This document shows, in pieces, positions 5,607 through 58,635 of a DNA stretch of 64,000 bases. The stretch is taken from IMG/VR virus record IMGVR_UViG_3300025940_000007, positions 1-64,000 of that record; one strand, given 5' to 3'. Each line of letters starts with the position of its first letter. The stretch's first letter is position 1. A model generated the notes under the pieces. That model was not told the origin of the DNA, did not search any database, and saw nothing but the letters and a program-made list of their open reading frames with translations. Both the position numbers and the translations under genes were made by a program. The stretch comes from a virus.

Positions 5607-5656
5607 GGGGCTCGGCCATCAACCCTGCGTAACCCACACAGGCACTGCCGAGCCCC
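5607..5656 (+). ncRNA. solitary TIGR-like stem-loop guide unit U1
   Basis: GGGGCTCGG-CCA-TCAACCCTG-CGTAACCCA-CACAGGCAC-TG-CCGAGCCCC. Confidence 0.8.
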
Positions 5657-5683
5657 ACCTTCATCTCACAAGGGAGCAACACC

Positions 5684-5848
5684 ATGCCTTTCAATTTCGA
5701 TCACGTCCTCTCCGCCCAGTCACCGTTCGACGCGAACGTGTGGCAGTGCGAACGCTGCGACACTGCCGACTACGAAGCCAACCACGATCTGGTTGATTGC
5801 TTCAACGTCTGGGAAGACGACAGCATGAACGTCGAGGAGGATTGCTGA
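5684..5848 (+). CDS. small acidic CxxC protein
   Basis: GGAGCAAC RBS; 54-aa ORF read by hand; TGATG coupling to next gene. Confidence 0.55.
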   Translation: MPFNFDHVLSAQSPFDANVWQCERCDTADYEANHDLVDCFNVWEDDSMNVEEDC

Positions 5849-6012
5849 TGCAATTCTCTCACACCACCGAACGGTGCACGCGCTGCCCGCACGTCACTGA
5901 TCTGTTCTACTGCCGCGCTGTCGATGAGTATCTCTGCGAAGACTGCATCGACCAGATAGCCGAGCGTCTCGACGCTCTGGCTGACGAGGCTGACGCCAAG
6001 CAGTCTTCCTAA
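5848..6012 (+). CDS. small Cys-rich Zn-finger-like protein
   Basis: CTRC..YC..LCEDC. Confidence 0.55.
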   Translation: MQFSHTTERCTRCPHVTDLFYCRAVDEYLCEDCIDQIAERLDALADEADAKQSS

Positions 6013-6036
6013 ACCTCACGCTCAAAGGAGCACCTA

Positions 6037-6297
6037 ATGCTGAAGTCCCCGCAAGCCTACGCCGCCGAAGTCCTCGACACCTGTTTTGGTGACAAGGACT
6101 CGGCGCTGTCCTCGCTCTACACCATCGCGCGCAACATCGAGGCGTTGCCGCCGCGCTACCTACTCGATGTCGCCAAGGCCATCGAGACTATCGCCGCCGC
6201 CGATGAGGCTGCGATCAACCAGCGCGTCGCCGACATCAAGTCGGGCAAGCACAGGGAAGGCCCCGTCCTCCTGCGCGATCTGCTCGGCAAGTTCTGA
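6037..6297 (+). CDS. hypothetical protein
   Basis: AAGGAG RBS; 86-aa ORF. Confidence 0.65.
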   Translation: MLKSPQAYAAEVLDTCFGDKDSALSSLYTIARNIEALPPRYLLDVAKAIETIAAADEAAINQRVADIKSGKHREGPVLLRDLLGKF

Positions 6298-6338
6298 CGT
6301 TTCGACACTGCCCTCCACGGAGGGCAGCACGAAGCGAC
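6295..6338 (+). repeat. structured intergenic element, copy 1 of 2 (not a TIGR unit)
   Basis: TGACGTTTCGACAC-hairpin containing CTCCACG-CACGAAGCG; same frame at 11440-11490. Confidence 0.6.
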
Positions 6339-6366
6339 ACGCTTCATTCACACTGAGGAGCAACTC

Positions 6367-56260: not shown

Positions 56261-56281
56261 GTTGGCCTCTCCTGTTGAGAT

Positions 56282-56986
56282 TTACGCGTCGTCGTTCTTG
56301 ATAGGGTCTTTGCCGAGAATCGGCGGCTGCGAGAAAATGATCTTACCCTTGGCGACCACCACCCAGTCACTCCCCATTCGGATCTTCGCGCCATCTTTGT
56401 GCGAGGCGACGCGCGAATCTTTTCCGACGCGGAAGGTGTGGCCGCCATCTTTGTTCATCCGAGCTTTCATCACAGCTTTATCGCCGCCGACGTGCCCTTT
56501 TTTCTGTTGCTTCTGTCCGCCGCCGCCACCACCGCTGCCGCTTTGCCCGCCGGATTGCTGGCCTTCCTGCTTCTTGTCGTCATCGGGCTGCAGCCAGTGA
56601 TCGTGACCGTCCTTGGTGGTCTTGCCGCGCAGATCGTCTAGCTGATAGCTCTCCTCGTCCTGCCCCGAGCCGTCGGCATGCTCGGGCGTCTTGAAATCCT
56701 TGTTGGGTGCGTAGGGCATGAGCATCCCCTGAGAGATGTCACCGCCGGGCGAGAAGATGGAAAGGTTCTGTCCCTTCTTGTAAAACCGCTGCTCTCTGGC
56801 GCCGCCCCTCATGTTGTTCGTGTTGAGCCACGGAGAGAGGATGTCTTTTCCGTCCTTGTCCTTGCCGAGGCTCATGCGGAGCTTGGTGCCCTTGACCTCA
56901 TGCACGGTGCCCTTCTGCGTCTGTTGCGACATCTGTCGCCGCAGATCCGCGATCTGTCCAAGCAAGCGCTGGTAGTCGTCGGCCAT
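56282..56986 (-). CDS. gpV-like baseplate spike protein
   Basis: GTVHEV..SPWL..GQ..IFSPGGD..QG OB-fold. Confidence 0.8.
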   Translation of the reverse strand: MADDYQRLLGQIADLRRQMSQQTQKGTVHEVKGTKLRMSLGKDKDGKDILSPWLNTNNMRGGAREQRFYKKGQNLSIFSPGGDISQGMLMPYAPNKDFKTPEHADGSGQDEESYQLDDLRGKTTKDGHDHWLQPDDDKKQEGQQSGGQSGSGGGGGGQKQQKKGHVGGDKAVMKARMNKDGGHTFRVGKDSRVASHKDGAKIRMGSDWVVVAKGKIIFSQPPILGKDPIKNDDA

Positions 56987-56993
56987 GCGCGCC

Positions 56994-57614
56994 TCACTTC
57001 AATTCGATTTGGATCTTCGTCGTCATCTTCTTCAGGATCTCCTGCGCCATCTGGCGCAGCGTGACGTCGCGGTTCTGTCGCTGGCCTGATCGTTGCGACG
57101 GGCTGGTGCCGCTCGTGGTGGACATCGTCACCGGCAGGCGCTTGCCCTTCGGTGCGTACGGCATGATCACGCATCGGCAGTGCGGATGCTTCGGGATGTG
57201 CTCGCGCGCGGCCTCGATCGGCATCGGGCCTGCAGCGGCGAGCTCTTCACAGTCTTGGCAAACAAGGTCGTCATCCTGATTGACGATGATCACCAGCGTC
57301 TTGGGGCGTTGGGTGCCGAAGTCGCGGCTCTCGCGGCGCCCCTCCAGCGTGGTCGGGTCGTCTTCCAGAAGCCGGTTGTTGACGACGATATCGTATTTCA
57401 AATCGTTCTTGGTCGCGCGCTTCACCCGCATCAGGCCGCGCACTTGCTCGACAGCGAGCCCGGTTTCCTTGGAGATGTCCCGGGCGAGAATGGAAACCAG
57501 ACCGTCACCGACTTCATTGAGACCGACCGAGATGATTGGCTTCGTCGCCTTCTCCGCCCTGTCCAGCTTCCGCGAATATTCTTCAACGGCGCTGGTGTCG
57601 ATCTTGATCTTCAT
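56994..57614 (-). CDS. minor tail/neck protein with a CxxC..HPHCRC segment
   Basis: DLVCQDCE..IPKHPHCRC. Confidence 0.6.
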   Translation of the reverse strand: MKIKIDTSAVEEYSRKLDRAEKATKPIISVGLNEVGDGLVSILARDISKETGLAVEQVRGLMRVKRATKNDLKYDIVVNNRLLEDDPTTLEGRRESRDFGTQRPKTLVIIVNQDDDLVCQDCEELAAAGPMPIEAAREHIPKHPHCRCVIMPYAPKGKRLPVTMSTTSGTSPSQRSGQRQNRDVTLRQMAQEILKKMTTKIQIELK

Positions 57615-58540
57615 TCGACCTCGCCATCGGCGACGGCTTTGTCCTTCTTCTCGATCGGCACCGTGGTGGCCACGTTGGTCTCGATGGTCTGCTCATCGAC
57701 CAGACCGACGTCCTCGTTCTTTTCCATATCGATGTCATCAAACCCGATCTTGCGAACAATCGGCGCCCCGCCTTGCTTGTCGGTGAGATCGTCACCGTAC
57801 TGCGTTGCGAAGGGCACCATGCTGGAGGCAAGCGGAGCGAGCCCAATGGCGCGCAGCCCGAGCCGACGCACACCTAATGCAGCTTGCACCCGCTCCCATT
57901 CCGGCGCCCCCTCGCGCGAGGCAAGCGCCGTACAGATCTCTGCAACATGCTCCATGTCGGCTTCCGGGTGCCTGTTGGAGGTTTCGACAAACTGCATGAT
58001 CGGGTGATCCTCTGGGATCGGCTCGCCCGGCGGCAGATCGCTGATCACGTCACACACGATTGAAACTTGTCGCGCTGCCCACCTACGGTCGCGGTCGCTA
58101 CTGGCGCCCCTCTGGCCGGTCAGCCGCTCGATCCGCAGCACGAAACCCTTGAGCAGTTCGGCCCACTCGTTCTGCGGATCGCCCCACAGCGCCGCCAGCG
58201 CCTGCGTTTCGACCATGTCAAGCGCGAGCTCCATACCCTCATCCGTCAGCGGGATCTTGATCTGCGCATCGCCTGTGACGCCCTCGACCTTGGAGGCGAC
58301 ACCGATCTCCAGCACCAGCGCGAGCTCGCGGCGCATGCCGTAGATGTCTGTCCCGTTCTGCTCGCTGCGGTTATCCGCGTCGGTGTACACGACGATGTAC
58401 GGCTTGGCCGCTTCGTTGAGCATCAGCGCCTGCGACAGCGGCGTGTTGTCCGAATCAAATACGCGCTTATCAGCCCAAGTCTGACCGCGCAAGGCCGCCA
58501 CTGCTGTGAGCCGGGTCAACATTCTGATGACAGACATCAA
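57611..58540 (-). CDS. tail completion-like protein
   Basis: ALRGQTWADKRVFDS..PYIVVYTD; position. Confidence 0.6.
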   Translation of the reverse strand: MMSVIRMLTRLTAVAALRGQTWADKRVFDSDNTPLSQALMLNEAAKPYIVVYTDADNRSEQNGTDIYGMRRELALVLEIGVASKVEGVTGDAQIKIPLTDEGMELALDMVETQALAALWGDPQNEWAELLKGFVLRIERLTGQRGASSDRDRRWAARQVSIVCDVISDLPPGEPIPEDHPIMQFVETSNRHPEADMEHVAEICTALASREGAPEWERVQAALGVRRLGLRAIGLAPLASSMVPFATQYGDDLTDKQGGAPIVRKIGFDDIDMEKNEDVGLVDEQTIETNVATTVPIEKKDKAVADGEVE

Positions 58541-58555
58541 GCATCCTTGTATGGT
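58527..58555 (+). promoter_or_regulatory. possible sigma70 promoter for unit L2
   Basis: ATGACA-17 nt-TATGGT ending 6 nt before the L2 stem. Confidence 0.35.
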
Positions 58556-58561
58556 CGAAGG

Positions 58562-58635
58562 GTGAGGGCGGGATCAGTGGTTTGGCCTCATCCATCCTGA
58601 AGCCCATGTAGTCTGTGCCGTGATCTCGCCCTCAC
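58562..58635 (+). ncRNA. solitary TIGR-like unit L2, antisense in the late operon
   Basis: GTGAGGGCGGGATCA..GG-CCT-CATCCATCC-TGAAGCCCA-TGTAGTCTG-TG-CCGTGATCTCGCCCTCAC. Confidence 0.88.

Follow-up and report, generated by a model that had tools for sequence, protein, structure and literature searches.

The stem-loop units of this phage are very probably tigRNAs of its own TasA protein, most of them written against a contiguous 17-bp DNA duplex whose central base pair is shared by the two spacers of the unit. The two spacers covary at their last bases (A9 and B9), natural sites show the 17-bp spacing, and the identity of their central base follows the spacer ends. To judge from the matching sites, the natural targets would usually be 17 bp in length and not 18 bp as published. 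[quoted passage not shown]

tigRNA units and the Tas protein of the phage

The window analysed covers the initial 64 kb of a phage record of 76.7 kb and contains, according to the standard parse, 39 stem-loop tigRNA units, all located on the plus strand and spanning positions 5606–58635. Each unit consists of CCA, the 9-nt spacer A, TG, a loop, CCA, the 9-nt spacer B and TG, and was parsed into box C (CCA), a 9-nt spacer and box D (TG) following the TIGRFinder rules (bioRxiv 10.64898/2026.09.09.750476), A9 and B9 being the last base of each spacer, directly 5′ of the two TG motifs. The final unit calling was performed with a covariance model and a strict fixed-architecture detector; a generic hairpin scan and a loose motif scan were dropped because of excessive noise. 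Unit positions C11, C12, G24, C29, C30 and G42 are invariant or nearly so, the outer stem is 94% paired with both-sided changes in 9 of 10 pairs, and the two spacers of ~9 nt with their box C (CCA-like) and box D (UG/CG) flanks are enclosed by a variable palindromic closing stem. There are CACC(C/U)UU tails 3′ of the stems which fit the published CUU processing motif (10.64898/2026.09.09.750476); the transcription, processing, Tas loading and RNA-guided DNA binding of the units are putative.

The units are dispersed across 53 kb of the phage genome, many of them being solitary and intergenic. The solitary ones are U1 (5606–5657, A9/B9 = G/C), U2 (7976–8027, T/A), U3 (8887–8938, T/G), U4 with a degenerate box D, TC (10490–10541, C/G), U5 (12432–12483, G/C), U6 (13920–13971, A/T), U7 (15739–15790, A/A, non-complementary), U19 (28407–28458, T/T) and U20 (31096–31147, G/T). 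U8 (24301–24352, T/A) is a leader unit 5′ of the tas operon, U9 (25092–25143, A/T) lies within the 5′ portion of the tas ORF, and the nine-unit array U10–U18 (25927–26476; GA, TG, GC, GC, GA, GT, GT, AA, AT) overlaps the 3′ end of tas and then extends downstream. Further units form a three-unit array (32521–32729; AT, CG, CG) and a 14-unit array with two alternating stem types (35987–36729; TA, TA, GT, AA, GT, TA, GA, GG, GT, TA, AT, CG, GC, CG), and two units with a long outer stem, L1 (50368–50435, A/T) and L2 (58562–58635, C/G), are antisense to late genes.

The tas gene (P0001; 25014–25985, plus strand) codes for 323 aa as the longest ORF, with an alternative start at 25113. The protein matches the Pfam family Transposase_20 (E 2e-4, 22.1 bits with a cut-off of 21.3), and its best phmmer match in PDB is TaTasR (9mty). 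In the AlphaFold model (pLDDT 81) residues 1–42 are disordered and Lys/Ala-rich, with the remainder consisting of a coiled coil and Nop-like helices; the top 10 Foldseek matches in PDB are all TasR 9mty or TasH 9w03/9vzx/9w04 (E 5e-5 to 3e-4, probability 1.0), followed by IS621 as the next fold match. Pfam Nop (PF01798) gave no match across the whole record, and no RuvC/HNH or other nuclease family was detected in P0001 in the Pfam search. Judging by these matches and the predicted fold, P0001 is a Tas protein combining a coiled coil for dimerisation with a Nop-like domain for RNA binding, and it is assigned to the TasA type since it has no nuclease domain. The units are clustered beside tas and conserved together with it: related loci, fetched via Tas homologues, contain 1,187 units on the tas strand versus 48 on the opposite one, and the covariance model found 555 matches in relatives.

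Covariation between the last bases of the two spacers

The sequence-only reading had reported complementary A9 and B9 in 23 of 40 units and G/T ends in 9 more. The complementary count stands, with one unit fewer overall: A9/B9 is Watson–Crick in 23 of 39 units, G/T in 8 and of another kind in 8. The column composition predicts 9.1 complementary units, none of 200,000 permutations reached 23, and in the 16 × 16 matrix of A-side versus B-side positions A9:B9 is the sole pair with a large excess (+14). The tabulation of relatives makes the covariation a family-wide one, with 350 of 721 units from 72 related loci being complementary versus 176 expected and every A-by-B position pair except A9:B9 being at chance in these 721 units. 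When near-duplicates were clustered, 293 of the 592 non-redundant units were still complementary versus 145.5 expected (z ~14), with an excess present in 41 of 43 loci. The rule is not strict, because just 49–59% of units are complementary and 21–30% are neither complementary nor G/U.

Could the covariation be produced by chance, by the parsing or by inflation due to related units? A parse shifted by one base indeed shows nothing (7/39 complementary, the chance level), but the shifted parse is wrong because the box C adenine lies outside the spacer, while the parse used here is the published box C/box D definition, so the signal survives the careful re-parsing that might have abolished it. Together with the permutations, the clustered set and the spread over loci, this leaves such an explanation practically no credit.

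Among the relatives, G/U ends are found in 153 of 721 units versus ~114 expected from composition and A/C ends in 58, and of the non-complementary combinations pyrimidine–pyrimidine is the most depleted and A/C the least. This is the isostericity pattern of a duplex, and both features would also suit an intramolecular RNA–RNA pair between A9 and B9 in the tigRNA, which is topologically nested and hence allowed as secondary structure; in that case the covariation would reflect RNA structure, leaving just 8 + 8 nt to read the target. Yet A9:B9 would be a lone pair with neighbours showing no covariation, and in one alignment it is pairable in just 73% of cases versus 94–100% for true stem pairs. 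Moreover, in published structures each box D motif is fixed to the Nop domain of a separate protomer, the two anchoring sites lying at either end of the dimer (PMC12045711), so the bases adjoining them should be far apart, as judged from the text of that paper rather than from coordinates. An RNA-only pair also does not predict that the centre of natural sites tracks A9/B9, as described below, and on examination this alternative is considered very unlikely.

Spacing and identity of natural target sites

Site spacing was described by k, the number of bases between the two 8-nt cores, where k = 1 (A1–8, one nucleotide and the reverse complement of B1–8) corresponds to a 17-bp site and k = 2 to an abutting 18-bp site. 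A window-wide site search ignoring distance gave an unclear geometry (7 versus ~4 at the 17-bp spacing), and the 17-bp signal emerges only once locality, orientation or codon position is applied. Up to 1.5 kb from a unit, 50 k = 1 sites versus 21.5 were obtained when as many as three mismatches were allowed and 13 versus 2.4 when as many as two were; within 600 nt there are 27 versus 4.2. The other spacings from −3 to +8, as well as the inverted arrangement with the spacer 5′ ends at the centre, are at control level near units, k = 5 excepted. The latter shows a small unexplained excess (41 versus 24.8). For k = 2 no overall enrichment was detected (27 versus 25.5 in cis and 16 versus 12.8 in other phages).

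In related phages, with an exact A1–8 anchor, k = 1 yields 5 perfect and 35 one-mismatch matches versus 1.0 and 13.6, being the sole enriched spacing in other phages, and the complementary units have 34 k = 1 matches there versus 8 in the opposite orientation. Among the nearby sites of complementary units, 14 of 18 have A9 as their central base, as do 22 of 31 matches in other phages. The central base pair shared by both spacers, as proposed by the sequence-only reading, is thus supported by the family-wide covariation, by the enrichment of k = 1 only and by the agreement of the centre with A9. A site could be identified for only ~3–6% of units, from which the geometry of the rest is extrapolated.

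The nearby matches of U2, U3, U6, L1 and L2, said earlier to fit with a one-base centre only, were all recovered as such, with two to four mismatches each. The U2 site (8333–8349, gene 7966–8865) has three mismatches, all at third codon positions. Synonymous third-position mismatches only are found in the U3 site in the AAA ATPase gene 6367–7953 (7492–7508, two mismatches, centre equal to A9), the U6 site in gene 14202–14552 (14275–14291, two, centre fitting both A9 and B9), the L1 site in the minus-strand gene 50439–52793 (52746–52762, two) and the L2 site in the minus-strand gene 58639–59052 (58683–58699, four). U8 has a candidate intergenic site 110 nt 5′ of it (24201–24218) which is ambiguous between the 17-bp and 18-bp readings, with 3 mismatches either way, and U5 has a 17-bp match with one mismatch in the related locus L006. 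All 20 mismatches that separate the guides from their self sites in this genome fall at third codon positions, and over 11 cis sites 27 of 27 are at synonymous third codon positions, which contradicts the view that the cis matches are due to chance.

The tas genes of other phages contain core matches of 16/16 for three guides, and for two of these the centre agrees as well (17/17), namely unit 9893 of locus L009 in the tas gene of L063 and unit 964 of L052 in that of L060, each site being orthologous to the guide's own mismatched site. Neither the 17-mer foreign allele predicted for U6 nor the 18-mer one predicted for U7 had an exact match in viral_contigs (0 each). On the strength of these matches the probable natural targets of the guides can be named as the alleles that related phages have of neighbouring genes, tas among them.

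Units with non-complementary ends were expected to match best as abutting 18-mers. U7 does have such a site (14480–14497, gene 14202–14552), with three of three mismatches being synonymous and at third codon positions, and of 11 one-mismatch 18-mer matches of non-complementary units, 4 have the exact predicted central dinucleotide versus ~0.7 expected, two of these 4 sites being in tas genes. For the units placed earlier at about 36141 and 36351, convincing 18-mer matches were not reproduced, the 18-mer readings at 36152 and 36363 being chance-like. Some non-complementary units have 17-bp sites instead: U10 and unit 9908 of L019 have ones whose centre fits A9 only, and since such sites follow A9 and not B9, B9 pairing may be dispensable. 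Of the two coexisting geometries suggested previously, the 17-bp one is therefore upheld, and the abutting 18-bp one, with its weaker support from U7 and the central dinucleotides, may coexist with it in some non-complementary units only. The non-complementary minority would then read either abutting 18-bp sites or 17-bp sites with A9 alone matched.

It may also be supposed that the complementarity is just an imprint of units being made from one 17-bp homologous stretch, with one or neither end base pairing in the complex. Along the spacers, mismatches to the self sites occur evenly and with an excess of transitions (40/69), resembling divergence from a common origin, the 17-bp sites of non-complementary units match A9 only, and SpTasH forms 8-bp heteroduplexes (bioRxiv 10.64898/2026.08.11.744272). 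On the other hand, single transitions from Watson–Crick pairs should give G/U and A/C ends equally, while 153 and 58 were observed, and the preference for G/U therefore points to selection on pairing at A9/B9; in PlTasA, the stem-loop TasA whose structure is solved, the heteroduplexes are 9 bp long. This explanation is considered improbable, if less so than the RNA pair. As to the favoured 17-bp duplex with a shared centre, we infer that A9 and B9 pair with the target simultaneously inside the complex, and G/U ends would let a single guide tolerate a transition of the central base pair.

Relation to known systems and meaning of the overlap

The published structures bear on this model in both directions. 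Spacer 5′ ends (box C) are located at the outer unwinding junctions (bioRxiv 10.64898/2026.08.11.744272), and the spacer 3′ ends therefore meet at the target centre. Cutting occurs on the 5′ side of the nucleotide that pairs with spacer position 5, leaving 8-nt 3′ overhangs (PMC12045711). A one-base overlap would cost each displaced strand one nucleotide (8 instead of 9 nt) and do nothing more. Counting against the 17-bp model, the TaTasR and PlTasA ternary structures show two 9-bp heteroduplexes (PMC12045711; bioRxiv 10.64898/2026.08.11.744272), the TaTasR target being an 18-bp abutting site (PMC12045711), and the founding Science paper saw no obvious covariation between spacers A and B in dual-repeat arrays, from which its authors concluded that overlap was unlikely (PMC12045711). 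The canonical TaTasR rule of 18-bp abutting sites with unshared bases and no A/B covariation does not describe the phage units.

The closest likeness is to the stem-loop TasA systems (PlTasA of Peromyscus leucopus gut, MbTasA, BlTasA), which also have a nuclease-less coiled-coil and Nop protein, units of the order stem, CCA, 9 nt, UG, short loop, CCA, 9 nt, UG, stem, located upstream of, downstream of and inside tas with a CUU-type motif after the stem, and spacers pairing with different DNA strands with their 3′ ends at the target centre. Unlike them, the phage shows A9/B9 covariation, 17-bp natural sites with a shared central pair and the scattering of its 39 units, often solitary between genes; the natural targets of TIGR systems were reported to be undeterminable (10.64898/2026.09.09.750476). 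The dual-repeat systems TasR/TasH (TaTasR 9MTY, SpTasH) share tandem spacers on both strands, CCA/UG anchors, the lack of a PAM and tolerance of altered half-site spacing (1–2 bp gaps; PMC12045711), but possess RuvC or HNH nucleases and conserved repeats instead of variable stems.

IS110/IS621 bridge RNAs likewise carry two guide segments in one internal loop which address opposite strands and both extend over a central core, and the IS110/IS621 protein is homologous to the phage Tas in the Transposase_20/Nop-like region. In IS621 the LTG covers target positions 1–9 and the RTG positions 8–11, the CT core being common to both (PMC11208158), so the overlap comprises 2 bp at a conserved CT, the recombination site, whereas the phage overlap is 1 bp of any sequence. 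The phage system has a Transposase_20-like region only, single-loop units and a central base that may be A, C, G or T, which sets it apart from a bridge-RNA system, and since DEDD/RuvC and Tnp catalytic domains are absent from its protein, nothing beyond binding is expected. Box C/D snoRNA and archaeal sRNA guides differ in having RNA targets, a separate one for each guide, with no common position.

The reading of 17-bp sites with a shared centre is a new form of TIGR-Tas targeting, and it links the way in which TIGR systems recognise DNA to the logic of overlapping guides in IS110 bridge RNAs. We also put forward, tentatively and as a possibility that falls short of being the probable one, a joint reading in which the one-base overlap is the footprint of a guide-making step and the system is a weapon for kin discrimination. 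A 17-bp duplex would be captured from the allele that a rival phage has of a neighbouring gene, the 5′ nine bases of each captured strand would become one spacer, and the resulting TasA guides would silence tas and neighbouring genes of related phages, with G/U ends broadening the range of alleles hit and the carrier evading its own guides via synonymous recoding of its copies. If true, this would provide the first natural TIGR targets and the first handle on spacer acquisition, for which the two geometries would, we infer, have implications as well. TIGR-Tas tools are designed on an 18-bp abutting rule, and a clade mostly reading 17-bp sites through a shared central base pair would alter how guides are designed and off-targets predicted for stem-loop TasA repressors. 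In the 17-bp frame the guides would resolve onto alleles of neighbouring phage genes, natural targets become findable, and the biological role of the system therefore becomes directly testable.

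Phage record, tas gene and tigRNA units

The window covers the first 64 kb of an IMG/VR phage record 76.7 kb long. Its + strand carries the early and replication genes, roughly between 6 and 37 kb, and its - strand the structural genes. The ORF at 25014-25985 (P0001) matches Pfam Transposase_20, its top PDB sequence match is TaTasR (9mty), and the ten best PDB fold matches of its AlphaFold model (pLDDT 81) are TasR and TasH, then IS621. It was assigned to TasA because it has no nuclease domain, and by protein fold and unit anatomy the system is TIGR-TasA.

Searching with a covariance model trained on 30 clear copies, and then inspecting the sequence, gave 39 tigRNA units, all on the + strand. 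Eleven are solitary and lie between genes, and there are three + strand arrays (25927-26476, 32521-32729 and 35987-36729). Each unit consists of a stem, CCA, 9 nt, TG, a 4-nt loop, CCA, 9 nt, TG and the stem again, as in the stem-loop tigRNAs described previously (PMC12045711; 10.64898/2026.09.09.750476). Pairing in the outer stem is 94%, and 9 of its 10 pairs show compensatory changes. Two complete units are within the tas frame, at 25092-25143 in the Lys/Ala-rich N-terminal part and at 25927-25978 at the 3' end, and an alternative tas start, the ATG at 25113, falls in the box D region of the former.

The long-stem units L1 (50368-50435) and L2 (58562-58635) are antisense to late genes. They share an extended long outer stem (GTGAGGGCGGG ... 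CGCCCTCAC) and lie where the late structural module on the - strand leaves short gaps, the predicted target of each being the adjacent late gene. The arrays at 25983-26476 and 35987-36729 consist of doublets with a period of 105-109 nt, in which two units are joined without a linker, the first with a GGTCGC/GCGACC-type stem and the second with a GAGCCCCGGC-type stem; the CACC(C/T)TT tail after the second unit agrees with the published CUU processing motif. Within the gene at 28486-29415, a unit-like sequence (28865-28915; CCG, 9 nt, TG, CAAT, CCA, 9 nt, TG) has a stem of only 6 bp and was left out of the 39; its ends would be T/A, and it may be the 40th unit of the sequence-only reading. A pyrimidine-rich run (TTTCTTTCTTCC...) followed by its purine-rich inverted complement at 20659-20735, in the gene-poor stretch separating leftward from rightward gene blocks, could be an origin or regulatory palindrome.

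Covariation of the spacer end bases

A9 and B9, the last bases of the 9-nt spacers A and B, were taken as the bases immediately 5' of the two TG motifs, the adenine of box C not being part of the spacer (10.64898/2026.08.11.744272). The covariation survives this standard box C/box D parse: A9:B9 is Watson-Crick in 23/39 units and G/T in 8, with 9.1 complementary units expected from composition and none of 200,000 permutations reaching 23. The sequence-only reading also had 23 complementary units but counted 40 units and nine G/T pairs. With the parse shifted by one base, so that the box C adenine is taken as spacer, 7/39 are complementary, which is chance level. In the standard parse of the 39 units, no A-by-B position pair other than A9:B9 has a large excess.

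The check in other arrays proposed by that reading gave the same picture. Tas homologues were aligned and 103 loci, mostly from soil metagenomes, were fetched, in which a strict detector assigned 1,187 units to the strand of tas and 48 to the opposite one. Among 721 unique units of these relatives, A9:B9 is complementary in 350 (expected 176), G/T in 153 and neither in 218, while the observed/expected ratio is 0.84-1.20 for all 99 other position pairs. After clustering of similar units, 293/592 are complementary against 145.5 expected (z ~14), with the excess present in 41 of 43 loci. In contrast, no A/B covariation was reported for dual-repeat TIGR arrays (PMC12045711). That the complementarity is a pure imprint of spacer acquisition is unlikely, since G/U ends are preferred over A/C ends (153 vs 58), which points to selection on pairing.

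The sole match in the prokaryote genome collection, contig L104 (DATGCX010000444.1), is 4.6 kb long and was binned into a Xanthobacteraceae MAG, a weak hint at this family as the host; the other relatives are from soil metagenomes or viral contigs.

Spacing and centre of the matching sites

In published structures box C sits at the DNA unwinding junctions (10.64898/2026.08.11.744272), and cleavage 5' of the target nucleotide that pairs with spacer position 5 leaves 8-nt 3' overhangs (PMC12045711). Therefore the spacer 3' ends, A9 and B9, meet at the target centre, in agreement with what the sequence-only reading had assumed.

Sites were searched as A1-8, k free bases and the reverse complement of B1-8, with the centre unconstrained and spacer B shuffled among units as the control; k=1 is a 17-bp site and k=2 an abutting 18-bp site. 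Regardless of distance, the whole window gave 7 matches vs ~4 at the 17-bp spacing. Within 1.5 kb of a unit in all loci, k=1 alone is enriched (13 vs 2.4 at ≤2 mismatches, 50 vs 21.5 at ≤3), and the inverted arrangement, like every other k from -3 to 8, is at control level. A small k=5 excess in the relatives (41 vs 24.8 at ≤3 mismatches), without a counterpart at ≤2, may be noise. The k=1 excess is confined to one orientation and ≤600 nt (27 vs 4.2), and by class it amounts to 23 vs 5.0 for complementary, 8 vs 2.1 for G/U and 6 vs 4.9 for non-complementary units. Close to a unit, 12 candidate sites fall within tas, vs 1.4 in controls. Overall, a site can be identified for only a few percent of units. 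Relative to the tas strand, the sites in relatives are strongly biased towards a + strand reading B1-8, centre, rc(A1-8) (36 vs 14 within 1.5 kb); in this genome, both orientations occur with respect to the sense strand of the target gene.

The site centre is A9 in 14/18 nearby sites of complementary units, and we infer that both end bases pair with the target simultaneously. An RNA-RNA pair of A9 and B9 within the tigRNA, which the sequence-only reading had set against its own 17-bp targets, is very improbable: it would leave the identity of the base at the target centre unpredicted, it would be an isolated pair, 73% pairable vs 94-100% for real stem pairs, and it would link bases anchored on opposite protomers according to published descriptions. 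The base shared by both spacers at the target centre resembles the 2-bp core common to the two guides of the IS621 bridge RNA (PMC11208158).

Non-complementary units had been proposed to match abutting 18-mers. This holds for U7, whose 3/3 mismatches are synonymous, but the units at 36152 and 36363 (36141 and 36351 in that reading) have no convincing site in the 17-bp or 18-bp frame, and U10, like L019 unit 9908, L007 unit 10888 and L008 unit 1247, has 17-bp sites with a centre following A9 only. For non-complementary units of relatives, the exact predicted central dinucleotide is found in 4/11 one-mismatch 18-mer matches, two of which belong to L058 unit 1863 and lie in tas genes. The 18-mers of U7 and of units in relatives beside the 17-bp sites therefore argue, as was first suggested, for two coexisting geometries, the 17-bp one dominant and the abutting 18-bp one with the weaker support.

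Synonymous mismatches and matches in related phages

When site mismatches were placed on reading frames, all 27 in 11 cis sites proved to be synonymous third-position changes. In this genome, 20/20 mismatches, 19 of them synonymous, fall on third codon positions in the candidate self sites of U3 (7492-7508), U2 (8333-8349), U6 (14275-14291), U7 (14480-14497, the abutting 18-mer), L1 (52746-52762), L2 (58683-58699) and U10, the last having two sites outside the window in the rest of the record. Genome-wide, two-mismatch matches are purely third-position in 5/8 cases at k=1 vs 0/19 at k=0, 2, 3 and 4. Own-phage matches with synonymous third-position differences lie at G000 67292 and 69685, as well as in L009, L014, L016, L021, L052, L064 and other loci. 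It follows that what the guides spell out is a synonymous version of a neighbouring gene. None of the papers searched reports 17-bp TIGR targets or synonymous self-recoding.

Exact scans of viral contigs for the predicted foreign alleles of U6 and U7 gave no match. In the other loci, a search anchored on exact A1-8 showed enrichment at k=1 alone, with 5 perfect and 35 one-mismatch matches vs 1.0 and 13.6; for complementary units there are 34 matches vs 8 in the control orientation, and the site centre is A9 in 22/31. Unit 9893 of L009 matches the tas gene of L063 at 17/17 positions and unit 964 of L052 that of L060, both where the tas genes of L009 and L052 themselves have synonymous mismatches, and many one-mismatch matches are also within tas. 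Guides thus match orthologous genes of related phages, often tas, perfectly or with one mismatch; judging from these sequences, RNA guides seem to target rival kin phages, and the carrier's own copies would be recoded for escape.
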